Virus record (IMG/VR): IMGVR_UViG_3300020426_000008
Span: 1-44,675 of that record
Reading direction: 5' to 3' (one strand)
Length of the DNA: 44,675 bases
Origin: a virus
Taxonomy: Duplodnaviria > Caudoviricetes
Part shown: positions 2,000 to 42,964 of the stretch, piece after piece
Layout: every line of letters begins with the position of its first letter
Position numbering within the stretch: the stretch's first letter is position 1
The notes under the pieces: generated by a model
Told to the model about the DNA's origin: nothing
Database searches by the model: none
What the model saw: the letters and a program-made list of their open reading frames with translations, nothing else
Translations under genes and position numbers: made by a program

Positions 2000-2074
2000 G
2001 CGATGGCCGCGCTTTCACCCTTTCGGGCCACGCCTGCTTCGCGTCGTGGCGCTTCGCGTTTCAATCGCTATCGC
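2000..2074 (-). repeat. Structured GNA-hairpin element, copy A
   Basis: Minus strand GCGATAGCGATTGAAA...GAAAGCGCGGCCATCGC; homologous to 2999-3080 and 42861-42939. Confidence 0.8.
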
Positions 2075-2077
2075 GGA

Positions 2078-2983
2078 TCATGCCAGCGGCACTCCAAAGC
2101 CCGCTGCGTTGCGATGCCCTCCCCCGCCAAACTTGCGGGCAATTTCGGACACATCGAGGCGTTCGTCACGGGACCGTAGTGAGAAGCCGCGCTCCCTTCC
2201 TTGGTCGGAATAACAGGCCACGAACGGCGCGTCGGGGTGGTCGTCTAGCAGCTTGTGACCCACTTCGCTGGCGAACATGGGCGGGCAGTTGCAGAGCGGG
2301 ACCGTGTGGCCCCCAACGTCACCCTTGCGTGATAGGCTGGCAATCTCGCTGACTTTCTGATCGAAGAACCGTTGCATCGCCCGTGCCTCGGACAGAAGAC
2401 GCTCGCTGTCTCGCCCGTCCATCAAAGCCTGATTGATTTCCTTCCAGCGTTCAAAGTCGAAAGGCTCGCTGCGAAGCCAAAGCCCGAACGGCTTTGTGTC
2501 GTCGAAGTTAAAGCGCCAGAGGTCGCGATCTTCGATAAGCTCAATAAGACGCGGGGCGGGCTGGTCGTGGCAGAACTCCCACACCATGCGCGCGCCAGAG
2601 CGATTCATATCGAACAACGCCACAACGGGTATGCCTTGATGGTCATCAAAGAAGCGAACCGTTTTCATCGGATCGCCGCCCGCCCAAAAATCGCCAGCCA
2701 CGTCAGTATGACTGAAGTTTCGAAGATCGTCTTGTGCCGTCTTATGATGGTCAAGCACAATCAAGGACTTGACCTGCTTACCCAGCTCACAGAGCGCGTC
2801 AAACTTGTAGCTGAAATCGCCGATCAGGACATGCTTGCCCGCGAGGTCCGTAGGCGGTTCCTGCCCGTAGCTGACAGGTCGATAATCAACCTCATCACCC
2901 CACTTCATCCAAGCGGCCCACGCCGCACCGAATCCGTCCGCACAATGCGCGTGGTACAGCATAATGTCAGGCTGATAGCCCAT
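2078..2983 (-). CDS. DHH/DHHA1 family phosphoesterase
   Basis: YHAHCADG, DFS, LDHHKTA, EDRDLW, GGGGHRNAAGF motifs. Confidence 0.9.
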   Translation of the reverse strand: MGYQPDIMLYHAHCADGFGAAWAAWMKWGDEVDYRPVSYGQEPPTDLAGKHVLIGDFSYKFDALCELGKQVKSLIVLDHHKTAQDDLRNFSHTDVAGDFWAGGDPMKTVRFFDDHQGIPVVALFDMNRSGARMVWEFCHDQPAPRLIELIEDRDLWRFNFDDTKPFGLWLRSEPFDFERWKEINQALMDGRDSERLLSEARAMQRFFDQKVSEIASLSRKGDVGGHTVPLCNCPPMFASEVGHKLLDDHPDAPFVACYSDQGRERGFSLRSRDERLDVSEIARKFGGGGHRNAAGFGVPLA

Positions 2984-2998
2984 GGTTCATTTCTCCTT

Positions 2999-3080
2999 GC
3001 AAAAGCGATTGATGCGCGCAGCGGCGAAACTGCGCAGCAGGTTCGACCCGAAGGGCGAAAGCGCGGGCCGCAGGCTTTGC
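2999..3080 (+). repeat. Structured GNA-hairpin element, copy B
   Basis: GCAAAAGCGATTGATG...GAAAGCGCGGGCCGCAGGCTTTGC. Confidence 0.8.
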
Positions 3081-3111
3081 CAAAACCCGGTCGGTTGATT
3101 ACTACAGACCA

Positions 3112-3597
3112 TCACACCCGCTCCTTGAGGTTGCGAGAAACAAGCCGGTAGCCTTCCCATGCCTCTTCTGCTGCACTGGTGCTGTCGTAGGCGTCCGGGA
3201 CCATGTGCGCCGCGCGATAGCCAGCTACGAACGCCGCACGCTCCGCCGCTTCTTCCAGCACTACATCCCCATCCTTGAGTGCTGCGAGGATAATTTGCTC
3301 TACGCGCCCGCGTAGGGCTTCAAGCGTAGCCATAAGGTTTGCGTCGGCATCTTCGGTCGCGTCCTGCCACTTTTCATACCAGTCGCCACGCAACCAGTCG
3401 GCCTCCACCAGCCCGGTAGCCTTTGGTGCTGGGCGGGTGTTCCATGCGGCTTTGGCGGCTTCACGATTTGAATAGGCTGTAGTGCAGGAGCTACAGTAGC
3501 CGCACTTCACCCAATGCTCGGCGGGATAGCCGAAACGGGTGTCAGCTTGGACCGCCTCACCCCCACAAAACGGGCACGGCTTCAATTCCTCGCTCAT
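3112..3597 (-). CDS. Lar-family restriction alleviation-like protein
   Basis: N-terminal EELKPCPFCGG...VKCGYC...AAKAAWNTR. Confidence 0.8.
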   Translation of the reverse strand: MSEELKPCPFCGGEAVQADTRFGYPAEHWVKCGYCSSCTTAYSNREAAKAAWNTRPAPKATGLVEADWLRGDWYEKWQDATEDADANLMATLEALRGRVEQIILAALKDGDVVLEEAAERAAFVAGYRAAHMVPDAYDSTSAAEEAWEGYRLVSRNLKERV

Positions 3598-3728
3598 CGT
3601 TCGTTCCTTCCGAATATCCTGTGATCGACCGCGCTCTTGAGGGCGATGAACTTGGCGCGGTCCATCCATCCTTCAATCACGGCCATGCGTGCGGCTACCT
3701 CAAGGGGCAGGTTGGGGGCGCGGGTCAT
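3594..3728 (-). CDS. Hypothetical protein (44 aa)
   Basis: ATGA-coupled to both neighbours, GGAGG RBS. Confidence 0.5.
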   Translation of the reverse strand: MTRAPNLPLEVAARMAVIEGWMDRAKFIALKSAVDHRIFGRNER

Positions 3729-3967
3729 GTGCGCCTCCCGCAGCGCAGCTTGCGCCGAAGTCGCCAAGTGAGGTTGGACAGCTTGCGGTGCAGCTCGCCG
3801 TTGCGATTCAAGACGATTGGGCAGGGTCGTCCCCGCCCAAGGCCAACCGTCCAGCGCAGGGGGTTGTATTTGATACGGGCGGGGGTCCGGTTGTAGTCTG
3901 CGCCAGTATGGCAGCAGATGTAGCCCCAGCGCCCGTTGGCGACGAAACAGGTGGGGTCGAACATCAT
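3725..3967 (-). CDS. Hypothetical basic protein
   Basis: Coupled ORF with GGAG RBS. Confidence 0.55.
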   Translation of the reverse strand: MMFDPTCFVANGRWGYICCHTGADYNRTPARIKYNPLRWTVGLGRGRPCPIVLNRNGELHRKLSNLTWRLRRKLRCGRRT

Positions 3968-4170
3968 CCATTCTCCATCTGATTAAGCAGCGCAGCATTG
4001 TGTGCGAGCAAGGCATCTGCCCGCGCCATGCTGGCCTGAATGCTGTCGATTGCGGTGATTGCCGCGTCATGCTGTGCGATCACTCCTGCGAGGGCGGCGG
4101 GCCTCCACATGCTTTCGCGCAGATCCCGTGCAGCAAGCTCGTCCTGGCGGTGTTGCTGGCGGATGCTCAT
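3964..4170 (-). CDS. Hypothetical protein
   Basis: ATGA-coupled ORF. Confidence 0.55.
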   Translation of the reverse strand: MSIRQQHRQDELAARDLRESMWRPAALAGVIAQHDAAITAIDSIQASMARADALLAHNAALLNQMENG

Positions 4171-4496
4171 GGCTGGCTCTCGCGGTGGGCTGCGAGGGCG
4201 GCATCAGCATTCGAGATTGCGTTTGAAACAACGTCATTCTCTCGCGCAGTCATTCTCCAAGCGTTGTGCGCCTTGAATTGGAATAAGGCTTCTCGGCTTT
4301 CTCCCAACGCATCCACCAGCTTTTGCACTGCTTCGGTCTGTGCTGTTGTGGAGGCGAGGTGCGCCGAATGAACGAACCTCTGCGAATGGCTCGCCGGGTG
4401 GTTGTGGCCCATGCTGTCCTTGCAGCGTTCGCCTTTGGCAGCGCCACAAATTGGGCACCCCATATCGACCCAGCCCTGCGTCACATTATCCTGCAT
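4167..4496 (-). CDS. Zinc-finger protein
   Basis: CPICGAAKGERC...HSQR; GGAGG RBS. Confidence 0.65.
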   Translation of the reverse strand: MQDNVTQGWVDMGCPICGAAKGERCKDSMGHNHPASHSQRFVHSAHLASTTAQTEAVQKLVDALGESREALFQFKAHNAWRMTARENDVVSNAISNADAALAAHRESQP

Positions 4497-4800
4497 GGCT
4501 GTCCTCCTTGCGGGCGAGTTCGATCTTTCGCACTTCAAGGCCGCGATCCTTAAGCTCGCTCCGCAGCAATTCGGTCTGTTCGCGGGTGTCGTAACGCCCC
4601 ATTTCCACAACGGCCTTGAGCGCCTCGTAAAGATCATCGACCGGCGGCTCTTCATGCTCCGCGATGTGGGCGGCGAACAACCGAACGGCACGCGCGTAAG
4701 TTGCATCTCTCCAGTCCGAGAAGGGCTTTTGGTCGGGGTTAACACCGCAACGTTTCAACGCCTCGTCAATCGCCCACTCGGGCACCTTCTCATTCTGCAT
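4486..4800 (-). CDS. Hypothetical protein
   Basis: MQNEKVPEWAIDEALKR...; AGGAG RBS. Confidence 0.6.
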   Translation of the reverse strand: MQNEKVPEWAIDEALKRCGVNPDQKPFSDWRDATYARAVRLFAAHIAEHEEPPVDDLYEALKAVVEMGRYDTREQTELLRSELKDRGLEVRKIELARKEDSHAG

Positions 4801-5044
4801 GATCTGTCTCCTGACTTGTGGGGGCTTCGATCTCCGCCCAGCATTCGGGGCAGTAGGTGCAGCCTGTGTATGGGTCGCTGCGCACCCAGCCTTCGGGGAA
4901 CGGCGCGTCATCCAGCGTCGGATGCTCCCAGACACCAAGGCCGTAACCCTTGCCGCTGAAGCTGCGGAACTGGCGATGGGGGACGGTGTGCGGGCCAGTC
5001 TCGACATGGCACCCGTCACAAGAGAGTGTGATGCGAACGGTCAT
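4790..5044 (-). CDS. Cys-rich hypothetical protein
   Basis: CDGC and CPEC pairs. Confidence 0.65.
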   Translation of the reverse strand: MTVRITLSCDGCHVETGPHTVPHRQFRSFSGKGYGLGVWEHPTLDDAPFPEGWVRSDPYTGCTYCPECWAEIEAPTSQETDHAE

Positions 5045-5448
5045 GCCGACACCGGAGCCACACGCGGCGTCACGAACCTGTCAGGCTCCCCAAGCGCAGA
5101 ACGAAGCACAGCCGACACGCTCGGGATCGCGCCCGTAAGCTCGACCATCTGCATAAAGTAGCTGTTGTCGCCCTGTATCTCGGCTTCGATAGCTGCCTTC
5201 TCGGTCATGCCGACCTGACGCTCGATCCATGCCTTGCGGTATTGCTCCAGCATCTCCCGCTGTTCGCAGGCGCGGTCGGTCGTGCCGTAAATCTCGAAAA
5301 CATCGCCAGCCAAGCCGCGCGGGGTAATCGCAACGGTCTTGCGTTCGATGAATTGCTCGGGATCAACCGATGCGAGGATTGCAGCGGGGGCAGGCTCCAT
5401 GTGCCAGTCAGCTACGGATGCCTTGGTGAAGGTGGCGGGGGCGGTCAC
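5041..5448 (-). CDS. Hypothetical protein
   Basis: Coupled ORF, 135 aa. Confidence 0.6.
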   Translation of the reverse strand: MTAPATFTKASVADWHMEPAPAAILASVDPEQFIERKTVAITPRGLAGDVFEIYGTTDRACEQREMLEQYRKAWIERQVGMTEKAAIEAEIQGDNSYFMQMVELTGAIPSVSAVLRSALGEPDRFVTPRVAPVSA

Positions 5449-5957
5449 TGGCTTGACCCTCGACCATCCACACTACGGCGCAGAGCGTCCCGCGCGATGG
5501 ACTTGGAAGCCGCACAGCAATCGGGGTCAGCGATGATGCTGGCCAGCGCGCCTCTGAGCCTAGGTGACATATCATGCGTATCTCGGGGATTGGCTTGATA
5601 TGTCGTGCACTCGAACTTTAGCGCGCCCTCGAACGGTTGCCGCGACCACTTGCGAATGCGCTCGCCACCGTGGGCGCGGGGGCTTTCGGCAAACTGGATA
5701 TAGAGCGTTCCGTTGTGCGGGGGCATGGGCAGTGCTGGTTCTGCGACTCCCCATGCCCCCGCTTCCATAAGCGGCTGCGCTGTCAAGGCGCTGGAACCGA
5801 TGTGCGTGTCTTCAAGTCGGGCAGCTATTTCGAGAAATGCGCGACCGCGAGCAATCGCAGCCATGTCGTCTTGCAGGTCGCCACGCGCTTCGACGCGCTG
5901 ACCCTCTTCGGCCAAATCACCAATCAAGTGCCGGAAGTTTAGGAAAAAATAACTCAT
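5445..5957 (-). CDS. Hypothetical protein
   Basis: MSYFFLNFRH start after AAGGTG; coupled to neighbours. Confidence 0.55.
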   Translation of the reverse strand: MSYFFLNFRHLIGDLAEEGQRVEARGDLQDDMAAIARGRAFLEIAARLEDTHIGSSALTAQPLMEAGAWGVAEPALPMPPHNGTLYIQFAESPRAHGGERIRKWSRQPFEGALKFECTTYQANPRDTHDMSPRLRGALASIIADPDCCAASKSIARDALRRSVDGRGSSQ

Positions 5958-6145
5958 GGCATCACCTTCAGGCAATTGCCGCAGCTCACATCGCTTTGTC
6001 CGCGAAGTTGCCAGCAGGTGCTTACGTGTATTGGATTGCCGCGTTTTCTTTCGACAACGCGAGATTCTCCTCTGCCAAGCCGCTCTGCGATAACCATGCC
6101 GCATGCGGTCTCAACGCCGAGAGCGGAGACGGCGTGTATTTTCAT
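5954..6145 (-). CDS. Hypothetical Cys-containing protein
   Basis: ATGA-coupled ORF, CGNC motif. Confidence 0.55.
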   Translation of the reverse strand: MKIHAVSALGVETACGMVIAERLGRGESRVVERKRGNPIHVSTCWQLRGQSDVSCGNCLKVMP

Positions 6146-6333
6146 GCCGACACCTGTTCACGCTGCCACTGGGCAAGCGTTTGCCGAACATGGGCCGCAA
6201 CATCCAAGTCGCGCCCCCCATTGAGCTCGATGTCAAAAAGCGTCCGAGCGAACTCCATGCATCGCATCGCGTCGGCAACCGTGCCGCAGCGGGGGTTCCA
6301 AGGAACTGGGTTCTGTGTCTCGTCCTTCGCCAT
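6142..6333 (-). CDS. First gene of leftward early operon, hypothetical
   Basis: AAAGGAG RBS downstream of PL. Confidence 0.65.
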   Translation of the reverse strand: MAKDETQNPVPWNPRCGTVADAMRCMEFARTLFDIELNGGRDLDVAAHVRQTLAQWQREQVSA

Positions 6334-6406
6334 CTCTAGTCTCCTTTGCCAAGTGGCAGGAGCTCGAGGGCGATCGGCCGCGGGCTCCCGTTACAGGAGC
6401 CTATCT

Positions 6407-6443
6407 ATAGGCGGACCTATAGGCTGTCAATAGGTATTATTAT
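6407..6443 (-). promoter_or_regulatory. PL promoter (TTGACA -35 at 6425-6430) with OL operators
   Basis: ATAGG-N4-CCTAT at 6407-6420 (perfect) and 6430-6443 (degenerate). Confidence 0.75.
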
Positions 6444-6445
6444 AG

Positions 6446-7111
6446 TTAGATGCGACGCCCTATCCAGACGACGCGACCGATAACCTGCATTTCCCCGTCG
6501 AAACACTCGATCGGCGTGACGTTCGGGTTGTCGGACATAAGGAGATAGCTGCCCTGGGGTGTTCGGCGCACACGCTTGATCATGCCGAGTTCGCCGTAGC
6601 TGACCGCCCAGATGCGATCCTGCGCGCGGACGGTTTGCTGCGCGCTATCGATGAGCACTATGTCGCCGTCTTTCAACGTGGGCTCCATGCTATCACCGTC
6701 ACCACGCGCGACGAATAGCTCGCTCACATGGCCGCTCATCATGGTGCGCAGCCATCCGCGCGAGAACGGCACGATGCCGGTTTGCTCGTATTGCTCAGAT
6801 AAAGTCGTGCCCCCACCCATCGAAAAACCGATGTCGTATTCCGGAAGCACGGCGAGATCGAGTTCGTCGGCCAGCGCGTCGACAGCGGACTTGCGCGGCG
6901 CAACCGGTGACGGATCATCTGTCTCGCCAGCCAACCATGCCGGCGAAGTCTCAAGCTCTGCTGCGATAACGTGCAGGTGCTTAGACCCCGCCGCCCCGCC
7001 CTTGATCAGCGCGTTGATTGTCGGCTGCGATACCTTAACCCGGCGCGCCAGTTCCGATTGCGAAATGTCGAGCGCATCGAGGCGCTCCCTGATTCGATCA
7101 CCGATAGTCAC
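6446..7111 (-). CDS. cI: CI-like repressor (XRE HTH + S24 peptidase)
   Basis: ISQSELARRVKVSQPTI HTH; GDSMEP and IKRV catalytic motifs; start codon uncertain. Confidence 0.93.
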   Translation of the reverse strand: MTIGDRIRERLDALDISQSELARRVKVSQPTINALIKGGAAGSKHLHVIAAELETSPAWLAGETDDPSPVAPRKSAVDALADELDLAVLPEYDIGFSMGGGTTLSEQYEQTGIVPFSRGWLRTMMSGHVSELFVARGDGDSMEPTLKDGDIVLIDSAQQTVRAQDRIWAVSYGELGMIKRVRRTPQGSYLLMSDNPNVTPIECFDGEMQVIGRVVWIGRRI

Positions 7112-7123
7112 GCATTCCACTAT

Positions 7124-7188
7124 ATAGGAACGCCTATCATCGGAAATATCGGTTTGCCTATTGACAGACCTATAGGCGTCGCTATAGC
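7124..7188 (+). promoter_or_regulatory. OR operators (three) and PR promoter
   Basis: ATAGG-N4-CCTAT-like boxes at 7124, 7148, 7172; TTGACA at 7161-7166; TATAGC at 7183-7188. Confidence 0.8.
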
Positions 7189-7196
7189 TAGGCGTC

Positions 7197-7412
7197 ATGG
7201 AACACGCCCTTCAACTCGCGCTGGATAAGGCAGGCAGTCAAGTTCGCCTCGCCGAAATCTGCGGCGTCTCGCAGCCGACCGTATGGGGTTGGCTCAAGAC
7301 GAAAAAGCCCCGCCTTCCGGCGGAATACGTCCTCAAGGTGGAAGCGGCTCTCGGCGTTTCGCGGCACGAACTCCGCCCCGATATATACCCGGCGCAGGAC
7401 GCGGCAGCATGA
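7197..7412 (+). CDS. cro: Cro/YdaS-like repressor
   Basis: GSQVRLAEICGVSQPTVWGW HTH, GVSRHELRPDIY; divergent from cI. Confidence 0.9.
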   Translation: MEHALQLALDKAGSQVRLAEICGVSQPTVWGWLKTKKPRLPAEYVLKVEAALGVSRHELRPDIYPAQDAAA

Positions 7413-7546
7413 AGCTCCCCCGCCTCTATCTCAACGGCCGCCGCGTCAGCTTCAACGCCACGCGTGTCGTCGCCCCCGCCAATCATGGCCCGATGTGCAA
7501 CTGCTGGCAGTGCGAACACGGCTTCGGACCGGACGACGCCGCATGA
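7409..7546 (+). CDS. Hypothetical protein (45 aa)
   Basis: ATGA-coupled to cro; H..CNC..C motif. Confidence 0.5.
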   Translation: MKLPRLYLNGRRVSFNATRVVAPANHGPMCNCWQCEHGFGPDDAA

Positions 7547-7674
7547 ACTGGCTGCTCGCATATCTCGCCGCCATTCCGGTTGGCCTCGTTGCGCTGTTCT
7601 GGCTCGCCGCCCGCGCGCCGCTCGGATCGGAAGACGAACAGGGCTTCCATCTCGGCAAGCAGGAGGGTGAGTGA
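7543..7674 (+). CDS. Small single-pass membrane protein
   Basis: MNWLLAYLAAIPVGLVALFWLAARAPLGSEDEQGFH..., manually translated. Confidence 0.55.
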   Translation: MNWLLAYLAAIPVGLVALFWLAARAPLGSEDEQGFHLGKQEGE

Positions 7675-8020
7675 ATGAACCGCTGCCCGTCCGCTCTCGC
7701 CGCCGTGCGCGTCGCCCTCGCCCAGCCTTTCGCCGATCCGGTGAACGTGGGCGGCATCCCCATGCGCCGCGCCGAAGCTCGTGCTCTCGAACGCCTTCTC
7801 ACCAGTAAGCCCGCGCGTCGCTCGCAAGACGCAACGGCCAGCGCCGCCCGAAGCCTGTCCCCCTTGGCCGACGGCGGCGCAACCCTCTCCATGCCGCGCA
7901 CTTCGGGTCGCGCGGTGGACTGCGCCGGGGAGGGTTCTCTCTCCTCCACTGCCCTTCCCGGCGCCTTTGTCGAACCTTCTGACCATGACCGCTCTTGTGA
8001 ACGAAAGGGTCAACACGATC

Positions 8021-11791: not shown

Positions 11792-11792
11792 C

Positions 11793-14965: not shown

Positions 14966-14969
14966 TGGC

Positions 14970-15141
14970 GGCGGAAGTGGCGGAAGTAGGTCACGTAAGT
15001 CATTGTAATTCCTTGGCGGAAGTTCGGCGGAGGTCGGCGGAAGTTGGCGGAACCGCGGCGCCTAAGTTATTGAAAATGCTTGGCGGAAGTTGGCGGAAGT
15101 TGGCGGGCGGAAGTTCCCCCATACCCCCTAGCGACTTCCGC
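14970..15141 (+). repeat. Probable replication origin: GGCGGAAGT iteron array with two IHF-like sites
   Basis: 7 perfect copies, 2 variants and 1 partial inverted copy immediately after the primase-helicase stop. Confidence 0.75.
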
Positions 15142-23205: not shown

Positions 23206-23219
23206 GGAAGGACTGAGCA

Positions 23220-23681
23220 ATGGGTGACAAAGTACAAGCCATCGTCCGCGGTCCCGAGAATTATTTCGACGGAACGCTTCATGCCCCCGGCTCGATCGTG
23301 GTGGTTGATGCCGATCAGGTTTCCGACAAGGACACCATCACGAAGACGGTGAAGGTGCGCCTCAAGGAACCGGCCATGGTTGAAGGAAAGCTCGTTCGCT
23401 TCGCCGAAGAAGAGGTGGAGGTGCGCACGCGCTTCCTGCCCCTCGAAGGTGCTGCGATCGCCGAGCCGAACACCACGACTGCGGAAGTCGCTACCGGCCA
23501 GCCCGATCGGCTCAATGTAAGCGACTTCCTCAAGGGCGGGGTCGACGACATCGAGGACGCGATCGCATCCGGCAAGGTCGACGCGTTTCTCGACGTGATC
23601 GGCCAGGCTGAGATCGGCGGCAAGGGCCGCAAGGGCGTGAAGGAAGCGATCACCGATCGCAAGGCCGCGCTCTCGCGATAA
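23220..23681 (+). CDS. Hypothetical virion-module protein
   Basis: AAGGAAGGA RBS; C-terminal E..GKGRKGV motif. Confidence 0.7.
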   Translation: MGDKVQAIVRGPENYFDGTLHAPGSIVVVDADQVSDKDTITKTVKVRLKEPAMVEGKLVRFAEEEVEVRTRFLPLEGAAIAEPNTTTAEVATGQPDRLNVSDFLKGGVDDIEDAIASGKVDAFLDVIGQAEIGGKGRKGVKEAITDRKAALSR

Positions 23682-23944: not shown

Positions 23945-24608
23945 CCTGATCCAGATTTGCAACGAAGCAATCTCCGACCTGCCCGCGCATCCGATCAGCG
24001 GGCTCGACGATCAGCGCAAGGAAGCGCGCGAATGCTCGCGGCATCTAAATGGCGTCGTCGCCGATCTGCTCGACGAACACGATTACGACTTCGCCAATCG
24101 ACGCGTGACGCTCGCTCCGGTGGCCAACACACGCGAGGGCGAGTGGGCCTATGCCTACCGCCTGCCCGACGAGATCATCTCCCCGATCAAGCTGGTGCGA
24201 ACCTACAACGCAAGCGCTGTCGACATGGTGGTGACGCCGGTCCTCTATTGGCCTGGGCTCGACCTAGCGACGCTTGGCTATTTCGAAATCGATTACGAGA
24301 TAGCGAACAACACGCTCTTCACCAATCTCGAGCAGGCTGTTCTCGAATACTCGGTGGATGCGGTGGAGCCGAACAAGTGGCCACCTCTCTTCGCACAGGC
24401 TGTCATCCGCTTGCTGGCCGCGCGCATATACCGCCCGATCCTTGGCGAGAAGGCCGACACTGGCGAGTGGCGGGTGAAGCAGCAGGCTGCGGCATATGCG
24501 GCCGCGCAGGCTCGCGCTTCGGATCTCAACCGTAATCCTCGGCAGCGCAAGGGCCATGTGAGCGAGGCTGAAATCGCCCGGCGTGGAGGTGGTGTGTGGT
24601 TACGCTGA
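23934..24608 (+). CDS. Head-tail adaptor (tail tubular protein A-like)
   Basis: IQICNEAIS.L, WAYAYRLP, WPPLFAQAV..LAA. Confidence 0.85.
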   Translation: MARNLIQICNEAISDLPAHPISGLDDQRKEARECSRHLNGVVADLLDEHDYDFANRRVTLAPVANTREGEWAYAYRLPDEIISPIKLVRTYNASAVDMVVTPVLYWPGLDLATLGYFEIDYEIANNTLFTNLEQAVLEYSVDAVEPNKWPPLFAQAVIRLLAARIYRPILGEKADTGEWRVKQQAAAYAAAQARASDLNRNPRQRKGHVSEAEIARRGGGVWLR

Positions 24609-25258
24609 GCAAGCGCAATTTCACGCGCGGCATCTTCTCGCCCGTCGTACAGTCGCGGCGCGATGTCGAGGCATGGAGCGCGGGCGCCAAGCGTCTGACG
24701 AACGTCTTCCTGCTCAAGCATGGCGGCGTGCGAAAGCGCCCCGGCACGCTGTTCGTCTACAAGCTTCCCGACGACGACAACGACGTGCGCTTGCTGCCCT
24801 TCACCTATTCGCCTGGGCAATCCTATGTCCTCGCGATGGGGCAGGCGACCATGAAGCCGCTCGCCTTGGGCGGCGCGGTGCTGTCCGAAGGCTTCGGCAT
24901 TACGGGCATCACGCGCGCGAACCCGGGCGTAATCACGGCGCCCTATCACGGGCTTTCGACCGGTGACGAAACCTTTCTCGCTGGCATCGAAGGCATGACC
25001 GAATTGAACGGCCGCGTCGTAACGGTGACCGTGATCGATGCGAACACGTTCTCGATCGGCATCGACACGACCAGTTTCACCGCTTTCACCGGCGATGACG
25101 GGACGGTCCGCACAGGCCCACCTGCCCCACCGCCCTCGCCCCCCTCAGTTCCCGCGCCGACGCCGACGCCGACGCCTCCCCCGACAACCCCGCCGGGTGG
25201 CGGTGGTGGCGGTGGTGGTGGCATTCGCGGCCCCGGCGGCGATCAGGACAAATACTGA
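24596..25258 (+). CDS. Nozzle N-terminal part with FCCH-like beta domain and Pro/Gly tail
   Basis: NFTRGIFSP..GGVRKRPGT; ITRANPGVIT..HGLSTGD..GMTELNG. Confidence 0.75.
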   Translation: MVTLSKRNFTRGIFSPVVQSRRDVEAWSAGAKRLTNVFLLKHGGVRKRPGTLFVYKLPDDDNDVRLLPFTYSPGQSYVLAMGQATMKPLALGGAVLSEGFGITGITRANPGVITAPYHGLSTGDETFLAGIEGMTELNGRVVTVTVIDANTFSIGIDTTSFTAFTGDDGTVRTGPPAPPPSPPSVPAPTPTPTPPPTTPPGGGGGGGGGIRGPGGDQDKY

Positions 25259-27033
25259 TGGCCGTCTATCCGCTCTACAAGGTCGCGACGCCGTACAATG
25301 CGGGGGAACTCGCCGATCTCGATTTCGTGCAGTCGTTCGACACGATCTATCTGGCGCATGAATTCTATGCGCCGGCGAAGATGGTGCGCAACGATCACGA
25401 CGATTGGGAATTCTCCTACGTCACGTTCTCGCCTGGCATCGAAGCGCCGACAAGCGTGTCAGCGACTGCGACCGTCGCGAACACCGATTCCGCGAACTCG
25501 GGCGATGGGTACTTCCCGCAAAGCTATTCCTACATCGTGGCTGCGGTGAACGCCGATGGGCAGGAAAGCCGCGGGTCGACGCCGGACAGCGCGACGAATG
25601 ACACTGAACTGCCGCGCAATTACACCACGATCAGCTGGACAGCGCCCGCGGGCACGGTCGACTATTACCGGGTCTATAAGGCGCACGAGAGCGGAAGCTA
25701 CGGCTTCATCGGCGAAACGGACAGCACCTCTTTCACCGACGACGGTTTCCAGCCCGACTATTCGGACGCGCCGATCGAGGCGTATGATCCGTTCGATGGC
25801 GCCGGCGACTATCCCGCCCGCCTCGGTTTCTGGGAACAGCGACTGTGGATGGGGCGCACCGGCAACAACCCGAATGCGCTGTTCGCATCGCGCACGGCCG
25901 ACTTCGAGAATATGGACTTCGCCCGGCCGCAACGCGAGAATGACAGCATCGCGATGTCGATCTCGACTGGCGAGAGCAACCTGATCGAAGCGATCATCCC
26001 GCTTGACCGGCTCCTGATCGGCACGAGCGACAATATCTTTTCGCTGTTCGGCCCGAACGACGGCATTCTCGTGCCCACTCCTCCGCCCGGCGCGAAGCGT
26101 CATGTCGGGCGCGGGATCGCGCAGCCGAAGCCGGTGGTGATTGGCGAGAATGCCTTCTATCAGCCGCGCGTCGAAAGCGGTGTGCGCTCGCTTGGGTACA
26201 CCTTCGAAGTCGACGGGTACAAGTCGAGCGACGTCTCGATCTTCGCGCCGCACCTGTTCCAGAATCGTCGCATCAAGCGCTGGGCGTACCAGGCCGAACC
26301 GGTGTCGGTGGTCTGGATGGTGATGGATGACGGCGACGTGCTGGCCTTCACATGGGAGGCCGAGCAGCAGGTATGGGGCTTCACCGAGATCGATCTCGGC
26401 GGTGTGGCGCTCGATGTCGCAGCTATCCCCGAAGGCGAAGAGACGCGCGTCTATTTCGTGGTCGAACGCCAGATCAACGGCGAGACGGTGCGCTATGTGG
26501 AAATCCTCAACCGCATCAAGTGGACCGATTTCAAGCAAGCCTCGCATCTCGACGCATCACGCATCTATGAATTCGACGAGCCCGTGACCGAAGTGACCGG
26601 CCTGCAGCACCTTGAAGGCGAGACGGTGGGCGTGCTGGCCGATGGCTATTCGACGACGAAGGTTGTCACTGATGGCGCGATCACGGTCGACGAGCCAGCG
26701 ACGAAGTTCGTCGTGGGGCTCAAGTTCGACGCGATCATCGAAACCATGCCGCTGCCGCCCGAGCCGAACAAGAAGATCACTGGCGAGATATACGTCGAAA
26801 TGATCGACAGCTTCGACGTCTTCGCCGGGCGCGAAGAGGACAATCTCGAATTGATCACCACGCGCGAAGAAGGTTCGATCGGCCCGCCTGTGCCGTTCAC
26901 TGGCGTTCCGGATCCTGCGCGCCCCGACCAGGTCGTCGATCGCAACGCGACGATCATCGTCAAGCAAACCTCCCCCTATCCGCTGATCGTGACCGCTGTG
27001 CATTACGGCGTGGAGGCGAAGGGGCGCGGGTGA
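25258..27033 (+). CDS. Nozzle (tail tubular protein B-like), main part
   Basis: TPYNAGELADLDFVQSFD, YP...FWEQRLW, YQAEPVSVVW, GLQHLEGETV, PYPLIV. Confidence 0.85.
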   Translation: MAVYPLYKVATPYNAGELADLDFVQSFDTIYLAHEFYAPAKMVRNDHDDWEFSYVTFSPGIEAPTSVSATATVANTDSANSGDGYFPQSYSYIVAAVNADGQESRGSTPDSATNDTELPRNYTTISWTAPAGTVDYYRVYKAHESGSYGFIGETDSTSFTDDGFQPDYSDAPIEAYDPFDGAGDYPARLGFWEQRLWMGRTGNNPNALFASRTADFENMDFARPQRENDSIAMSISTGESNLIEAIIPLDRLLIGTSDNIFSLFGPNDGILVPTPPPGAKRHVGRGIAQPKPVVIGENAFYQPRVESGVRSLGYTFEVDGYKSSDVSIFAPHLFQNRRIKRWAYQAEPVSVVWMVMDDGDVLAFTWEAEQQVWGFTEIDLGGVALDVAAIPEGEETRVYFVVERQINGETVRYVEILNRIKWTDFKQASHLDASRIYEFDEPVTEVTGLQHLEGETVGVLADGYSTTKVVTDGAITVDEPATKFVVGLKFDAIIETMPLPPEPNKKITGEIYVEMIDSFDVFAGREEDNLELITTREEGSIGPPVPFTGVPDPARPDQVVDRNATIIVKQTSPYPLIVTAVHYGVEAKGRG

Positions 27034-36734: not shown

Positions 36735-36748
36735 TAAATCTTCGGGGC

Positions 36749-36967
36749 ATGAGGATCCTGGCACTGGCATTTCTGCTCTCGGGCTGCGCCACTATGGGCG
36801 CTGGCGTCACCGGCAATTCGATGGGCGTGACGGTTTCGAACGTCTGGAATCGCAGTGCGGCATTCGAGAAGGCCGAAGCGCACTGCGCCGAACACGGCAA
36901 GGTAGCACGCGCGACAGGCGAAGGAGAAGATTTCCATTTCTCGTTCGATTGCGTCGAGCCTTCCTGA
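36749..36967 (+). CDS. Small lipoprotein
   Basis: Lipobox LSGC; AEAHCAEHGK...FDC. Confidence 0.75.
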   Translation: MRILALAFLLSGCATMGAGVTGNSMGVTVSNVWNRSAAFEKAEAHCAEHGKVARATGEGEDFHFSFDCVEPS

Positions 36968-36968
36968 C

Positions 36969-37000
36969 ATTTTGAGATACGATAGGGCGGCTTTTACCTC
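36969..37000 (+). promoter_or_regulatory. Late promoter motif 3
   Basis: ATTTTGAGATACGATAGGG, 19-bp identity to 18668-18686. Confidence 0.7.
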
Positions 37001-37021
37001 TGTTCGCAGAGGTGATTGCCA

Positions 37022-39622
37022 ATGCCCGTTTCGACCGAAAACTCTGTTTCCGGCCCGTACACGCCGAACGGGGTCACAACCGACTTCGCATTCGATTTCA
37101 AGGCGACTTCCGCCGACGAAGTGGTTGCGCTCGACCAAGACGGGGCGGTCATCTCGAACGCTCTATACTCGGTCACGCTGGATGATGATGAAGGCGGCAC
37201 ACTGTCGTTCTCGGTCGCTCCAGTCCTGGCGGACTATTCGGCGATCTTTGTCGCGGGCAACCCTGCCCTTACCCAGCCTTCGGATTTCGACAACGCCGGG
37301 CCGTCGTTCAACCCCGCGGCGCTGACACGCGCGCTCGACCGGGCTGCGGCGCGCGACCTCAAGCAACAGCGCGAAATCGATCGGGGGCTTCGGGTTCCGT
37401 TTGGCGAGGCCGGACTGTCGCTACCCCCGGTGGCTGACCGCAAGGGCAAGTATTGGCTCTTCGATCCCGTCACCGGCGCGGCGTCGCTTGATACGCCGTC
37501 GAACTTCGCAGCGCCGGCGGCTGCGGAAGCCGACCGCGCCAGCGAAAAGGCTGATGTTTCTGAAAGTGCCCGCGATGCAGCGATCGCCTACATAAACCCC
37601 TATGCCGACCAGGCCGCCGGTGAAGCCGCGAGTAGTGAGGGCGAGCCGTTCAGCTTCCTCGACGGTGACAATCAGGTTGCTCTTGCTGTTCGCACTGCTG
37701 GCGGTTCTGAGTTGCTGACGACATATTTCGGAGCGGCGAAAGTTGGGTTGTTCGGCGGTGGGACGGTCAAGGACGCGCTGCCGTTTGTCGTTCCTACCGG
37801 CACGACCGCGACCGAAGTGCAGGCGGCTATTGATACGGGGACCGATGTTTTCCTCGGCACCTCGACCTATACGATTGCAACACCCCTGACCATGAATGCG
37901 GGCCAGCGGATTTTTGGCAATGGCGCGACCCTTCAAGCGGCGGGCGCGATAAACGAGATCCTTCTGGCTGCCAATAATGCGATCATCGAGGGGATCACCT
38001 TCGACTGCGCGAACACGCAGCCGGGGTCCGGCGTGCCGATCAATTCGGATGGCGCGGGCGCGGGCGTTCGGATCAGGGACGTAACGGGCTGCACGCTTCG
38101 CAAGTGCAAGTTCACAAAATACCGGCGCGGCATTTCCATCACATCGAGCGTTGCCGGAACGGCTTGCAGCGATCACCTGATTGAAAACTGCGAAGCGGAT
38201 GCTGGTTATACCTGGAGTGCCGCTCGCTCCAGCAACACCCAGCTTGGGGCCTATGTCGGGTCCGAAGCCAGCGCAACAATCCCCGACATTGCCGATTACG
38301 GCGACAGCGAGCCGGAGTGCGAAGATGTGCGCAACATCCGGTTCATCGGTTGGAAGGCGACCGAGGGCCAGTATGGCCTTGCCCTGCACCGCTGCTCGAA
38401 TACTAGCGTAGTGGGCGGGGACTTCCGCCAGATGTCGCGCGCCATTTCGATCCAGCATCAATCGCGCGGCATCACGATCAGCGGCAACGTCATTGCCGAT
38501 GTGGACAGCACCGGAGTTCACATGTCGCAGGGGGCCAGCCAAGTGTCGGTTGTGGGCAACCGCATTAAAGCGACGATGGCGAATGATAATGTCGGTATTC
38601 AAGCCTACTATGGCTGCAAGGACATCAGCATTGCCGACAACCTGATCGACAGCCGGTTTGACGCCTGGGCGGGTGGCGCATCGGGTGAAACGCGCACTCC
38701 GGGGAGCGGTATCCGGCTAGGCCAGCAGGTCGAAAACGTAAGCGTTCGCGGCAATAAGATACGCGGCTTTGCGGTTGGCGTCTCGCTCAAGTCCACGATT
38801 TACGAGACGACTATAACCTCGGGCGACGCTAACTATCACAACGCTGGCATCCGCAACATCACGATCAGCGGTAACACGATCATTGGGGACTACTTCACGA
38901 CTGCGACCGGCTACAAGGGAGTTTTCCCGCAGAACGGCTCGTATGGTATCCGCGTGCAGCTTTCCGGTTCATGGGAGGACACCGTTCAGGGCGCGTGGAA
39001 CGTGTCTGGCATCGTGATTTCCGAAAACGAGTGCGACGGCGTGGGTTACAGCTACGTCATGGAAACTGCCACGATGAGCGGCGGGGCTACGCCGCCTGTC
39101 TATTTAAACTTTGGCGTTCGCTTGGAGAATAACCAGGCGGCTAATGATCTTAGCAATGTCGTGCGCTCCACCATCACAACGCCGCTGTCGGTTGTCTATC
39201 AGGGCAATAGCTGGCGCGATGAGCAAAGTTTCACGCCTACCCTAGTCGGAACTTCCACAGCGGGCACGCAAACTTATTCTGCGCAGGTTGGGCGATGGGT
39301 TGCGCGCGGCGGTCGCGTTCTTGTGCAGGGCCGCATTGTGTTGACAGCGAAAGACGCGGGGGTAGCGGGCCAAGCGGTAATCAAAGGGCTGCCCGCAAGC
39401 GTCAAGTCAGGCACCAACGAAAACCGAGCGGGATCGGTTGCCCTCTGGGGAGGCGTTACCCTTTCTGGGGGATACACTGCGCTAAACGTATTTGCTGAGC
39501 CGGGAACCGACCAGCTCAGGCTTGTCCAGTGCGGCTCGGGTTCTGGCGCAGCATACCCGAGTTTCGCCAATGTGTCTGCGACGGCCCAAATCGACTTTTC
39601 GTGCGAGTATGAACCGGCATGA
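37022..39622 (+). CDS. Tail spike: T7 gp17-like anchor plus right-handed beta-helix (depolymerase-like)
   Basis: NGVTTDFAFDF..ALDR anchor; repeated I(T/S)(I/V)xGNxI strands. Confidence 0.85.
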   Translation: MPVSTENSVSGPYTPNGVTTDFAFDFKATSADEVVALDQDGAVISNALYSVTLDDDEGGTLSFSVAPVLADYSAIFVAGNPALTQPSDFDNAGPSFNPAALTRALDRAAARDLKQQREIDRGLRVPFGEAGLSLPPVADRKGKYWLFDPVTGAASLDTPSNFAAPAAAEADRASEKADVSESARDAAIAYINPYADQAAGEAASSEGEPFSFLDGDNQVALAVRTAGGSELLTTYFGAAKVGLFGGGTVKDALPFVVPTGTTATEVQAAIDTGTDVFLGTSTYTIATPLTMNAGQRIFGNGATLQAAGAINEILLAANNAIIEGITFDCANTQPGSGVPINSDGAGAGVRIRDVTGCTLRKCKFTKYRRGISITSSVAGTACSDHLIENCEADAGYTWSAARSSNTQLGAYVGSEASATIPDIADYGDSEPECEDVRNIRFIGWKATEGQYGLALHRCSNTSVVGGDFRQMSRAISIQHQSRGITISGNVIADVDSTGVHMSQGASQVSVVGNRIKATMANDNVGIQAYYGCKDISIADNLIDSRFDAWAGGASGETRTPGSGIRLGQQVENVSVRGNKIRGFAVGVSLKSTIYETTITSGDANYHNAGIRNITISGNTIIGDYFTTATGYKGVFPQNGSYGIRVQLSGSWEDTVQGAWNVSGIVISENECDGVGYSYVMETATMSGGATPPVYLNFGVRLENNQAANDLSNVVRSTITTPLSVVYQGNSWRDEQSFTPTLVGTSTAGTQTYSAQVGRWVARGGRVLVQGRIVLTAKDAGVAGQAVIKGLPASVKSGTNENRAGSVALWGGVTLSGGYTALNVFAEPGTDQLRLVQCGSGSGAAYPSFANVSATAQIDFSCEYEPA

Positions 39623-39729
39623 CCCGCGTCCTCGCCATAGTCGGCTTTCTCGGGCTCGGCGTCGCCGGTGTCTCTGCCTATCGACTCGATCGCTGTTTAC
39701 GGCGAGCGTTTGGCGGGTGGCGTTGGTGA
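39619..39729 (+). CDS. Tiny membrane peptide (36 aa)
   Basis: MTRVLAIVGFLGLGVAGVSAYR...; coupled on both sides. Confidence 0.45.
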   Translation: MTRVLAIVGFLGLGVAGVSAYRLDRCLRRAFGGWRW

Positions 39730-40274
39730 TGGACGAAGTTCTCGCCCATACCTTCCCGCCGAGTTTCGAGGGCTCTCCATGGTCCTACGGCTTCGCGCTG
39801 TTCAGCCTGACGCTGATCTGCGCGCTGTCGGTCGCCATGCTGCTGCAGTTCGTCTTCGAGTGGCACGCGCGGCGCGAGGCGCAGAAGATCGCGGCCAACC
39901 GGATCAGCGCGGACGTGCCCTTCGCATCGCCGCTGGCAATCCATCGCTGGATCATCACCGGCTTCCTCGTCACGATCCTGCTCGGCGCATTTCCCGACGT
40001 GATGGTCCTATTCATGTGGGGCGAAGCGCGGGACAGCACGATGGTCACGCTGTTCACGATCGACCGGGTTTGTGACGGCCTGACGATCTTCCCCTTCACG
40101 CTCGCCGCGGTGCTTTCAGCCTGGGGGATGCAGGTTCTTCCGCAACAGTTGGTGCGCGAGACGCGCGTGATGCTGCAGCGGCCGCGCTGGGAAACAATCA
40201 AGGCACAGGCCAAGATCATCGGCACGGTCCTCGTGATCGCGGTCGGCGTGACAGTTTCCAAGGCCGGGGCATGA
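39729..40274 (+). CDS. Multi-pass membrane protein in lysis cassette
   Basis: About four hydrophobic segments. Confidence 0.7.
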   Translation: MDEVLAHTFPPSFEGSPWSYGFALFSLTLICALSVAMLLQFVFEWHARREAQKIAANRISADVPFASPLAIHRWIITGFLVTILLGAFPDVMVLFMWGEARDSTMVTLFTIDRVCDGLTIFPFTLAAVLSAWGMQVLPQQLVRETRVMLQRPRWETIKAQAKIIGTVLVIAVGVTVSKAGA

Positions 40275-40636
40275 AGGCCTCGACCGGCATAGCCATCGCC
40301 GCGCCTAGCTTGGGCCCGGCGATCGTGACCGTGTTCGGTATCGACGTGCCGGTAATGGCGCTGTGCCTATCCGTGGCTGGGCTGGTCCTCGCCCGCGTGG
40401 TCGCGCCGCCCCCGCTGCGCAAGCTCTCGCGCGTGCAGGAGGTATCGCTGACGCTGCTCCTGCTCGTCGTGCTGTTCCTGATCGTAACCGGCGAGCTCGG
40501 CGGCGGTGATCCGCTCGGACCCGGCATGGCAACTGTCTGGGGCATTGGCCTCGGGTTCTCTGGTCTGCTCGCCGTCGAGTTCTTTGGCGAGCGCATCCGC
40601 GCGATGCTTACCGCTCTCATGGGAGGTGCGAAGTGA
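40271..40636 (+). CDS. Putative holin
   Basis: About three TM segments directly upstream of endolysin. Confidence 0.6.
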   Translation: MKASTGIAIAAPSLGPAIVTVFGIDVPVMALCLSVAGLVLARVVAPPPLRKLSRVQEVSLTLLLLVVLFLIVTGELGGGDPLGPGMATVWGIGLGFSGLLAVEFFGERIRAMLTALMGGAK

Positions 40637-41211
40637 ACATCAAGAATCTGCAGCAATCGCTCGGCGTCACGGCTGACGGTATCGCAGGACGCGGCACCTT
40701 CACCGCGCTGTTCCGCAAGCTGGGCGCGTCGCAGGAGCGCGCCGAAGAACTGGCGCTGTCAGCCAACGTCCACTTTCCCGCCTACGGCATCATGGATAGC
40801 GCGCTTCGTCTGGCGCACTTCATGGCGCAGCTTTGCCATGAGAGCGGCTCGTTCCGCTACATGGAGGAGATCGCCAGCGGGGCCGCGTATGAAGGCCGCG
40901 AAGATCTGGGCAACGTCTATGCGGGCGACGGGCGGCGCTACAAAGGGCGCGGGCCTATCCAGCTTACCGGCCGCGCGAACTATCGCACCTTCGGCCGGCG
41001 CATCGGCATCGACCTCGAGCGGCACCCCGAAATTGCCGCCGTGCCCTCAATCGGACTGCATACCGCGCTGGAATACTGGCGCGACCGTGGGCTCAACGCA
41101 TGGGCCGACCGCGACGACGTGCTGACCATTACGCGCAAGATCAACGGCGGCACGAATGGGCTGGCCGATCGCAAACATCACCTCGCCAAGATCAAGGGGT
41201 GGCTGCTGTGA
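40633..41211 (+). CDS. Endolysin, glycoside hydrolase family 19
   Basis: AHFMAQLCHESG, YKGRGPIQLTGRANY, INGGTNGLADR; N-terminal ADGIAGRGT PG-binding fragment. Confidence 0.93.
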   Translation: MNIKNLQQSLGVTADGIAGRGTFTALFRKLGASQERAEELALSANVHFPAYGIMDSALRLAHFMAQLCHESGSFRYMEEIASGAAYEGREDLGNVYAGDGRRYKGRGPIQLTGRANYRTFGRRIGIDLERHPEIAAVPSIGLHTALEYWRDRGLNAWADRDDVLTITRKINGGTNGLADRKHHLAKIKGWLL

Positions 41212-41483
41212 CCCGCTCGCAGCAACGCTTCCGCTTGGCGATCGGTGTGCTTGGCCTCGATGCTGCCCTGCTCGCCGCGCTGGTATGGTTAGCCGCGAAC
41301 GACATCGCCGTTTCGGGCGAGAATATCCTGTTTATGGCGGTGGGTATCGCGCTTGGATGGGGCGGCACGGTCCTCGCCTACTATTTCGGCACCTCGGAAT
41401 CGAGCGCGCAGAAAACCGAACTGCTTGAGCGTCGCCCGCAGGGAACGCCAGCGGATCCTGTGCATGTGGAGGACGACCAATGA
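41208..41483 (+). CDS. Holin-like 2-TM protein
   Basis: Two TM segments then YYFGTSESSAQK. Confidence 0.65.
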   Translation: MTRSQQRFRLAIGVLGLDAALLAALVWLAANDIAVSGENILFMAVGIALGWGGTVLAYYFGTSESSAQKTELLERRPQGTPADPVHVEDDQ

Positions 41484-41617
41484 TCGGTGAACGCATGGGG
41501 GAAATGATCTGGCGCGGCATCGTCGAGCGCGTGCGTGGCATCGCCGCGGATTACTGGCTGATCGCGGTGGCGCTCGTGCTGTTCGTCGCAGGGCTCTGGG
41601 TAGGAGGCTGGCAGTGA
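41480..41617 (+). CDS. Small membrane protein
   Basis: ..YWLIAVALVLFVAGLWVGGWQ; coupled. Confidence 0.5.
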   Translation: MIGERMGEMIWRGIVERVRGIAADYWLIAVALVLFVAGLWVGGWQ

Positions 41618-42012
41618 TCACGAATTTCCTCGCCCCGCTGACGCACAAGCTGTTCGTAGGCGCCCTCGGTATCGCACTCGTCGCGATCGGCATCCTTTGG
41701 TGGTCGAACAACGCGAAGGCCGGCCACATCGAAGGGCTGCAGAAAGACTTGGCTGGCGAAGAAGCCCGCCATGCTGTCACACGCCAGTCGGTCGGCACGC
41801 TCGAAGCGGTGATCGCCGATCTGAACGAACAGGTTGAGCAACGTGCGGCGGCGTTTGCAGAAGCGCAGCAATTGGCCGAGAAACGCGAAAGCGAACTTGC
41901 CGCGGCTCGGCGTACGTCCGACGCGGCAATCGCGCGGCTGCGCGATCTAGCGCGGCGCGGGGGGCAATGCGCGGTGCCTGATGATCTGCGCGAACTTGCG
42001 GAGGGTTTGTGA
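41614..42012 (+). CDS. i-spanin (Rz-like)
   Basis: N-terminal TM, coiled coil, C-terminal Cys. Confidence 0.75.
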   Translation: MITNFLAPLTHKLFVGALGIALVAIGILWWSNNAKAGHIEGLQKDLAGEEARHAVTRQSVGTLEAVIADLNEQVEQRAAAFAEAQQLAEKRESELAAARRTSDAAIARLRDLARRGGQCAVPDDLRELAEGL

Positions 42013-42121
42013 ACGTGGCGGCGCTCTGGTCGATTTGAGCTATACGCTAAGGCATCTAGAAAACCTATCGCAGCGTAGCGGGACTTCTACCCGCAACCTC
42101 CGCCTTGAAAGGATGTAAACC

Positions 42122-42436
42122 ATGCGAAAGCTACTTTGTCTAGTCCCGATCGCGCTCTTGGCCTCCTGCCAAACCGCCGAGCCCGGTATCGAGGTCCGCA
42201 CGGTCGAGGTGGTGCGCGAGGTGCAGAAGCCCTGCCCCGGCACGCCGCCCGTTCGCCCGGCCCCACTGGGCCCGCTCATGGCGACTGCCGAAGCCGCTCT
42301 TGCGCAGGCGCTGGCCAAGTTGGCCGAGTATTCCGCGCCCGGTCAATTCGCCGACCAGGCGGATGCGTATGTCGAGGCGTGCCCGCCCTCAGCCGAGCAA
42401 CCCCAGCCCGGTAAGCACCTGGACTGGCTTAGGTAG
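42122..42436 (+). CDS. o-spanin (Rz1-like) lipoprotein
   Basis: Lipobox LASC, Pro-rich, two further Cys; AAAGGA RBS. Confidence 0.72.
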   Translation: MRKLLCLVPIALLASCQTAEPGIEVRTVEVVREVQKPCPGTPPVRPAPLGPLMATAEAALAQALAKLAEYSAPGQFADQADAYVEACPPSAEQPQPGKHLDWLR

Positions 42437-42468
42437 GCGCATTGGATGCCTCGATCACTTCTCTAAGA

Positions 42469-42618
42469 TCATCCATGTTTGCTGTCCTCCTTGTGGTGGT
42501 CGAGCCAACGCTTGACCTGCTTTCTCGTCGCCTCTCGCGTCGGACTTGCTCTAAGCAGCTCGCAATTCCACTGCGCCAACAGCAACCGCGCTTCCTCTAG
42601 GGCCCCTGCCTCAGTCAT
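42469..42618 (-). CDS. Hypothetical protein (49 aa)
   Basis: MTEAGALEEARLLLAQWNCELL...; AAGGA RBS; overlaps upstream stop. Confidence 0.45.
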   Translation of the reverse strand: MTEAGALEEARLLLAQWNCELLRASPTREATRKQVKRWLDHHKEDSKHG

Positions 42619-42964
42619 GGCTGGCGTCCTTGGGCTGCTGCTCGGTGCAGTAGATATTGCCTTCGCGGGTCAGTCTCGGGTGGATCGAAACCCCCTCCGG
42701 CACCCCGGTCCTTGAATGGAGCACGATGTATTGGCAACCGGTCTGCCTGTCCCATAAGAGCCCCCGCGCGCCTCCTGCGCTGTGGTAAGTTAGCCACGAA
42801 GCGGGGGCTTGCTCAGCGCTCTCTTTTTGCGTGGGGGGAACGGTATCCCCACCGCACCCTGCGATAGCGATTGAAGCCGCTAGGGCGAGACACGCAGTGG
42901 CTCGACGCGAAGCGCGAAAGCGCGGGCCGTAGGCATCGCTAAACCGTTGGTATTTATCTGACAT
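42611..42964 (-). CDS. Lipoprotein, DUF6440-like
   Basis: IAGC lipobox; DRQTGCQYI...SIHPRL..EG..YC; AGGAG RBS. Confidence 0.7.
   Translation of the reverse strand: MSDKYQRFSDAYGPRFRASRRATACLALAASIAIAGCGGDTVPPTQKESAEQAPASWLTYHSAGGARGLLWDRQTGCQYIVLHSRTGVPEGVSIHPRLTREGNIYCTEQQPKDASHD
42861..42939 (+). repeat. Structured GNA-hairpin element, copy C
   Basis: GCGATAGCGATTGAAG...GAAAGCGCGGGCCGTAGGCATCGC. Confidence 0.8.

Follow-up and report, generated by a model that had tools for sequence, protein, structure and literature searches.

A covarying element, probably folded in single-stranded DNA, borders exchanged genes in phages and recurs in conjugative elements

A stretch of viral DNA of 44,675 nucleotides (IMG/VR record IMGVR_UViG_3300020426_000008, positions 1 to 44,675; hereafter the window) carries three copies of an element of 80-90 bases for which a two-junction structure is predicted on one strand. 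The element family is real and widespread, with members in proteobacterial phages, in loci that resemble integrative and conjugative elements (ICE-like loci), in Bacteroidales defence-gene regions and in conjugative plasmids. It is apparently undescribed: it was not found among the literature matches listed, and older literature may mention the plasmid copies as plain repeats. The role of the element as a cassette boundary in phages is well supported. Our leading interpretation, which we hold tentatively, is that the element is a folded landmark in single-stranded DNA (ssDNA) for the exchange of gene cassettes. Phage copies bracket genes, and in conjugative elements the copies are on the inferred transferred strand.

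The three copies had been described in an earlier note made from the letters of the window. Their positions were confirmed by pattern matching and by covariance models, and the closing stems, central stems, A.G juxtapositions and all six mini-hairpins were found where the note had placed them. The copies are as follows:

2000..2074, minus strand: element A; the folded strand is the sense strand; 3 nt past the stop codon of a cargo gene; without the fifth hairpin; 70.6 bits
2999..3080, plus strand: element B; the folded strand is the template strand; directly upstream of the ribosome-binding site (RBS) of the cargo gene; 81.3 bits
42861..42939, plus strand: element C; template strand; within the 5' part of an open reading frame (ORF) at 42611-42964; 77.9 bits

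The pattern AGCGATTGA-N25..55-GAAAGCGCGG has exactly three matches in the window (2007-2069 on the minus strand, 3004-3066 and 42866-42925 on the plus strand) and none in 100 shuffles. With covariance models, A, B and C score 69-81 bits and the next match in the window 12.9 bits. DNA or RNA nearest-neighbour energies of single copies are no better than those of shuffles (z from -1.2 to +0.8), so the fold rests on covariation and not on energy.

Searches of phages and genomes recovered a large family beyond these three copies. Pattern scans of IMG/VR yielded 71 and 91 stretches, and of GTDB genomes 108. The covariance model was built from 54 sequences, with 15 loci left out (13 of the 71 loci were judged by eye to be chance matches, and L031 and L042 were omitted from the seed alignment). 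It gave 155 matches among the 91 loci, of which 80 had at least one, 88 matches among the 108 (76 with a match) and 97 matches in another 61 loci. The predicted fold has a 5-bp closing stem that leads to a three-way junction with an optional hairpin; further in, a zipper (3 bp, A.G, 2 bp, tandem G.A, 1 bp) ends in a four-way junction with three hairpins. Two blocks that the earlier note had called invariant are indeed common to the three copies; across the family they vary, pairing and covarying together as the two arms of one helix (GCG/CGC becomes GGG/CCC, and ATTGA/GAAAG becomes ATCGA/GAGAG, ACCGA/GAGGG or ATACCC/GGGTAG). The closing stem varies as well (GCGAT, GCGCA, GCAAA, GCGTC, GAGTT). 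Among 142 distinct rows, 97.7% of the cells are paired and 21 of 22 modelled pairs change on both sides; none of 500 shuffles matches this pairing, and in slid controls the paired fraction is 29-43%. Another alignment, of 90 rows, has 96.5% of its cells paired; both alignments were fitted to the model structure, so that both figures are biased towards it. An unpaired C at position +1 past the 3' end is conserved (86-94% across the three settings), and the 3' flank is mildly G-poor (16% at +3..+12 vs 28% further out, in 226 phage copies). The element has no family match in Rfam 15, where the window returned only tRNA at the gathering score, window positions 1900-3200 two weak unrelated matches at E<=10, and 20 element loci one unrelated match at E<=1. 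In five genomes, with 150 candidates scored in each, there were 1-6 clustered copies and no chromosome-wide spread.

The evidence for a cassette boundary comes from the slot between A and B, which form an inward-facing pair around the cargo gene. The features of this slot, and the ORF that contains C, are:

2078..2983, minus strand: cargo gene, DHH phosphoesterase; different genes are in its place in close relatives
2987..3112, minus strand: 41-codon mini-ORF (MVCSNQPT...) that reads through the reverse complement of B
1577..1975, minus strand: gene that borders the slot on the A side, with a start and RBS common to all alleles compared
3112..3597, minus strand: Lar-like gene on the B side of the slot
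42611..42964, minus strand: ORF, preceded by an RBS, whose start is 25 nt before C and which runs through C; weak phrog_8801 / DUF6440 match

The suggestion that copies coincide with gene-content breakpoints was borne out by swaps observed in relatives. Three close relatives (L318, L319 and L320) were found via the flanks of the A-B slot. L319 contains a DUF5131 gene between retained copies of A and B. L318 contains an HNH-like gene, a different element that replaces B, and a chimeric A, of which the first 8-9 bases are foreign and resemble another copy type; its closing stem is mismatched and the crossover is located in CGATTGAA. In L320, both elements are replaced, with junctions to the shared flanks at 1988 and 3088. 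The junctions among the slot alleles fall inside elements or within about 12 nt of them. Metagenome contigs show breaks in the same places: X14 joins 2076 to 2991 across 749 other letters and may represent the L319 allele, X13 breaks at 1988 and 3089, and X16 breaks at 2987. A loose end at 42939 in run X12 was left uncounted, as it may come from another locus. In RNA runs, 0-7% of the words were present. In the more distant L051, near-identical copies of A and B flank an unrelated gene, and L100 carries a DHH gene 61% identical to that of the window within an inward pair of its own. The alleles share a remnant of the mini-ORF, its start MVCSNQPT, which in L318 and L320 is joined in frame to the cargo.

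One empty and filled pair of sites was also found. In L307 a gene start is uninterrupted, and in L094 the reverse complement of the element, a cargo and the element are inserted there, with the first 11 nt of the gene duplicated on both sides. Six of 69 inward pairs have direct repeats of at least 9 nt on their flanks, against a null mean of 0.45 and a maximum of 2 in 300 shuffles; these six repeats of 9-11 nt are mostly at gene starts or RBSs, 1-36 nt from the element. Joints of this type look like short-homology annealing and not like the target duplication of a transposase. As a separate observation, relatives share many near-identical patches of 30-50 nt at gene starts and ends in window regions 1355-4360 and 42454-43142, with different genes between them, and such boundary mosaicism also occurs where there is no element.

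The arrangement of copies in phages is non-random. The 50 phage records, each selected for having a copy, contain 1-17 copies each. Across nine genomes, neighbouring copies within 3 kb alternate in strand in 56 of 75 cases (null 40.0, p 0.00015) and those under 800 nt apart in 36 of 41 (null 21.6; 0 of 20,000 permutations). Inward pairs number 23 against 10.8 expected, and their gaps are always at least 176 nt, which leaves room for a gene; outward pairs are separated by at most 102 nt in 5 of 25 cases. The phage unit is the reverse complement of the element, one or more genes, and the element. This layout means that each strand of the cargo carries a folded copy on its 3' side.

The earlier note had proposed a folded ssDNA site that is read by a protein. 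What stands of this is the strand-specific fold, most likely in ssDNA, to which two lines of evidence point: the types of loop and the placement of plasmid copies. A census of 849 hairpin loops from 254 distinct elements counted 503 GNA triloops, 47 GNYA loops, 21 GNRA loops and no UNCG loop; C-G is the closing pair of 511 triloops. GNA loops with this closing pair are reported to be highly stable in DNA (PMC3201870), and the common four-base loops of the element (GAAT, GTCA and CTTG) fit DNA tetraloop classes named in a title that the same paper cites. Wobble cells (G.T 80 vs A.C 59) do not distinguish the strand. From the loop types and the location of plasmid copies on the putative transferred strand, the fold probably forms in DNA, with strand placement being stronger evidence than loop or wobble counts.

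The plasmid F has two copies:

58089-58175, minus strand: first F copy
63477-63563, minus strand: second F copy

Each follows an ssiD/Frpo-type sequence of its own strand at a distance of about 90 nt on the 3' side. R46 has three copies, two of them about 90-135 nt beyond a long upstream repeat, an IncN2-like plasmid has four, and R388 has two weaker ones (E 2e-6 and 6e-4). All 11 copies in these four plasmids lie in the leading region on the inferred transferred strand; for R46, R388 and the IncN2-like plasmid, strand and side were judged from a nic-like site, the R388 form of which is printed in PMC4176350. The F-type sequence matches 4,309 of 72,556 PLSDB records, and 3,281 of the matched records are conjugative. 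Not all leading regions carry the element, as R751 gave one partial match and R64 only matches at E 0.03-0.08; ColE1 and phiX174 gave none. Identity with oriT was rejected, as the nic-like site is kilobases away in three MOBF plasmids.

In IncN and IncN2-like plasmids, a second small motif (CCAAGCGNAGCGCGG plus a hairpin) directly precedes the element. Motifs of this type were found at the following positions:

L285: 23761-23790
L286: 28389-28420, 28980-29045 and 31485-31517
L280: 2354-2368

As a 15-nt motif it abuts the 5' end of the element in two of three R46 copies and three of four IncN2-like copies, and it ends in the same AGCGCGG. It is absent from the other 287 of 291 loci. It is also present in the F-G intergenic region of phiX174, where we take it to be the primosome assembly site. 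The motif of IncN-type plasmids is possibly an unannotated primosome assembly site.

In the alphaproteobacterial ICE-like loci, the element is mostly single-copy and neighbours ParB, Toprim, SLOG, DUF736/SSB, DUF932 or ArdA genes; it divides a conserved backbone, located 5' of it, from cargo that varies, located 3' of it. Bacteroidales copies are arranged as direct repeats that often touch the stop codon of a cargo gene; they lie in regions with abundant restriction and Abi-like genes and are packed into compact arrays. In both settings, homology between loci extends 5' of the element and ends 1-3 nt past the closing stem at its 3' end. Pairs of loci that share only the 5' flank outnumber those that share only the 3' flank by 45 to 4 (ICE-like) and 47 to 2 (Bacteroidales), in counts where locus pairs are not independent. 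Several further features were seen around these copies. At L181:2351-2990, for example, a non-coding stretch of about 640 nt upstream of DUF736/SSB carries further GNA-capped hairpins and a stem of a T-run and an A-run on the strand of the element; stretches of this type are possibly an alphaproteobacterial ssDNA promoter. In Bacteroidales loci such as L185, L025 and L068, the 600-700-nt leader 5' of the element is modular and carries a promoter-like TAACTTTG motif directed towards the element. Some Bacteroidales alleles have a 26-nt hairpin inserted directly 5' of the element.

A number of observations weigh against an exchange landmark, in addition to the fitted alignments, the wobble counts and the non-independent locus pairs given above. 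Element C has no partner copy, and 63 of 69 inward pairs, including that of the window, have no flanking repeat of at least 9 nt. The variable distance of the six repeats (1-36 nt) means that there is no fixed target duplication. L094 contains a second gene-start duplication of roughly 43 nt, around a gene that lacks an element on the left; joints of this kind may therefore reflect general mosaicism of phages. The flank-sharing signal in phages is small (7 pairs vs 2, 5'-only vs 3'-only), and none of nine other DHH loci carries the element. Homologous exchange is promoted by any repeat of 80 nt, and the swaps are therefore no proof of selection on the fold for exchange. A co-occurring partner gene, which the earlier note had anticipated, did not emerge from BLASTP clusters in nine element-bearing phage genomes (G020, G034 and G035 only partly covered): the widest cluster occurs in six of the nine and has no member in the window. 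The family phrog_1273, of unknown function (L303:19360-19647 and homologues), was seen in six of the nine genomes and not in the window. Among 29 ORFs from the possibly incomplete array contig G053:C28, there was no integron integrase or other cognate enzyme.

If the element does act as an exchange landmark, the following steps can be proposed. DNA would become single-stranded by resection, on the lagging strand or during conjugative transfer, and the element would fold. The fold would persist and hold the end of a fragment, and the short G-poor 3' tail or the shared CGATTGAA block could then anneal at short homology, such as another copy or a gene start. Annealing would probably be carried out by general host or phage strand-annealing proteins and not by a dedicated recombinase. 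A bolder version of this proposal is possible but doubtful: the element may be a structure-defined ssDNA recombination signal that is read by a conserved host protein and common to temperate phages, ICEs and F, N and W plasmids, making up integron-like cassettes without an integrase of their own that feed counter-defence and defence genes into early and leading regions.

The main rival to exchange is that the fold protects or insulates single-stranded transcription units, such as those driven by ssDNA promoters, as a cap against 3' exonucleases, a template-strand terminator or a replication pause. Shuffling would then be a by-product of recombination between repeats. We regard this as rather unlikely, although several observations fit it, namely the distances of the F and R46 copies from ssiD/Frpo-type sequence and the long repeat, the cargo stop codons that often abut the 3' end of the element in ICE-like and Bacteroidales loci, and the occurrence of structural roadblocks in the F leading region (bioRxiv 10.64898/2026.01.09.698686). 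The roadblock mapped in F in that preprint, however, is reported at ssp2 and not at the element. Moreover, by a rough gene caller, predicted ORFs contain 54 of 89 phage copies, and 38 of the 89 are on the sense strand; a single GNA hairpin should suffice as a cap.

It is unlikely that the element is a priming signal of the ssi or primosome-assembly type, at which host proteins would start complementary-strand synthesis across the gene on its 5' side. The phiX174-like motif abuts five of seven IncN-type copies, and conversion in the recipient depends on host factors (bioRxiv 10.64898/2026.01.09.698686). However, the motif is missing from nearly all loci, the deposited ssiD sequence stops before the element, and by sequence and structure a phiX174-type primosome assembly site was rejected because the models match neither phiX174 nor ColE1. 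According to the same preprint, early F conversion near Frpo needs transcription, as psiA and ygeB conversion is abolished by rifampicin, and psiA conversion is still delayed by ssp2. From the annotated positions, an efficient RNA-polymerase-independent primer site at 58.1 kb should bypass this delay.

A further reading takes the element for the terminus of a non-autonomous mobile element, mobilised by an enzyme of the HUH type, or for a self-cleaving DNA, with inward pairs as composite transposons; we consider this improbable. The sharp 3' boundary, the conserved unpaired C at +1, the inward geometry that places both 3' ends outside and the empty and filled pair of sites would agree with this. 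Against it, target duplication of fixed length and position was not found, the window has no transposase, copies are clustered in few places in the five genomes scored, and cargo is also swapped while the ends stay in place. The ends of DDE transposons were rejected as only 6 of 69 pairs have a repeat of 9-11 nt, at variable distance. Finally, a structured RNA (a regulatory leader or small RNA) is highly improbable: covariation by itself cannot separate RNA from DNA (PMC5737381), but RNA-type loops are almost absent from the census, neighbouring leading or early genes run antisense to 51 of 89 phage copies and to the plasmid copies, and Rfam holds no match.

The earlier note had likened the element to attC, REP and ssi sites. 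The element does not show the features by which attC, REP and the named ssi sites are defined. The attC consensus core is RYYYAAC ... GTTRRRY. The element has no such core, and GTT and AAC, where present, are read from the alignments in the order opposite to that of the attC bottom strand, so that attC was rejected on its core boxes. The integrase of the window is a tRNA-targeting phage integrase. Unlike attC, which is one hairpin, the element has two junctions, and its pairs are inverted in phages. REP and REPIN sequences with RAYT have a 5' GTAG-type tetranucleotide and chromosome-wide copies, and they are also short folded ssDNA units in inverted pairs. They were rejected because a flank census found no GTAG end, no RAYT was seen, and the element is clustered in mobile elements and encloses whole genes. 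What the element does have in common with attC is that structure is kept more than sequence and that one strand folds (PMC5737381), along with compact arrays of genes plus sites in which stop codons are beside the site (Bacteroidales L212, L200 and L173).

The PeSL cassettes of T4-type phages resemble the element as repeats that are dispersed through hyperplastic regions and at which genes are exchanged (PMC2839356). A PeSL is a promoter plus a terminator (PMC2839356), whereas conserved promoter boxes are not evident in the element. Its two orientations and the ORFs that run through it argue against a PeSL, and it is found in plasmids too. With Frpo/ssiD and CUP it shares the leading region, the strand and direct adjacency, and CUP repeats are reported to recombine (PMC11541004, PMC9849209, PMC12672017, PMC5371602, PMC3490853). 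Identity with Frpo/ssiD was rejected, since ssiD (D90178.1, PMC11541004 supplement) ends about 90 nt before the element, which has no -35/-10 stem; its TTGA block varies across the family. As for CUP, the R46 copies lie beyond the repeat of the 23209-23653 type, which is missing at one of them. The DUF1874 motif (Rfam RF02953) resembles the element in being multistem, in lying in consecutive intergenic regions and in being a proposed complex ssDNA site (PMC5737381); its model had no match in the window at E up to 10. By analogy, the element would seem to behave most like attC or PeSL, and it sits beside Frpo and CUP units.

Natural folded DNA that is more complex than a hairpin is described as a rare case (PMC5737381). 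With its strong covariation, its position next to the two Frpo promoters of F and its occurrence in plasmid records by the thousand, the element is testable in standard laboratory systems. If it directs exchange, it would provide a concrete mechanism for swaps of phage accessory genes at gene boundaries and for the renewal of anti-defence genes in plasmid leading regions. If it only protects or insulates ssDNA, it would still be a new component of plasmid establishment.

The window as a whole is a complete temperate prophage of about 44 kb, with A and B in a leftward early operon and C in the accessory region at the right end. Its integration features are:

101-1210, minus strand: tyrosine integrase, a tRNA-targeting phage integrase
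2-76: tRNA-Phe(GAA), the prophage integration site

The 3' end of the tRNA recurs near 44154-44172 at the right end of the window. Other genes encode a repressor, a YqaJ exonuclease, a primase/helicase, terminase, and head, tail and lysis proteins. Short direct repeats of the GGCGGAAGT type follow the primase gene at 14978-15106 and are possibly a replication origin. At 24596-27033, a phrog_376 tail protein is split across two adjacent ORFs (profile positions 4-107 and 105-711).

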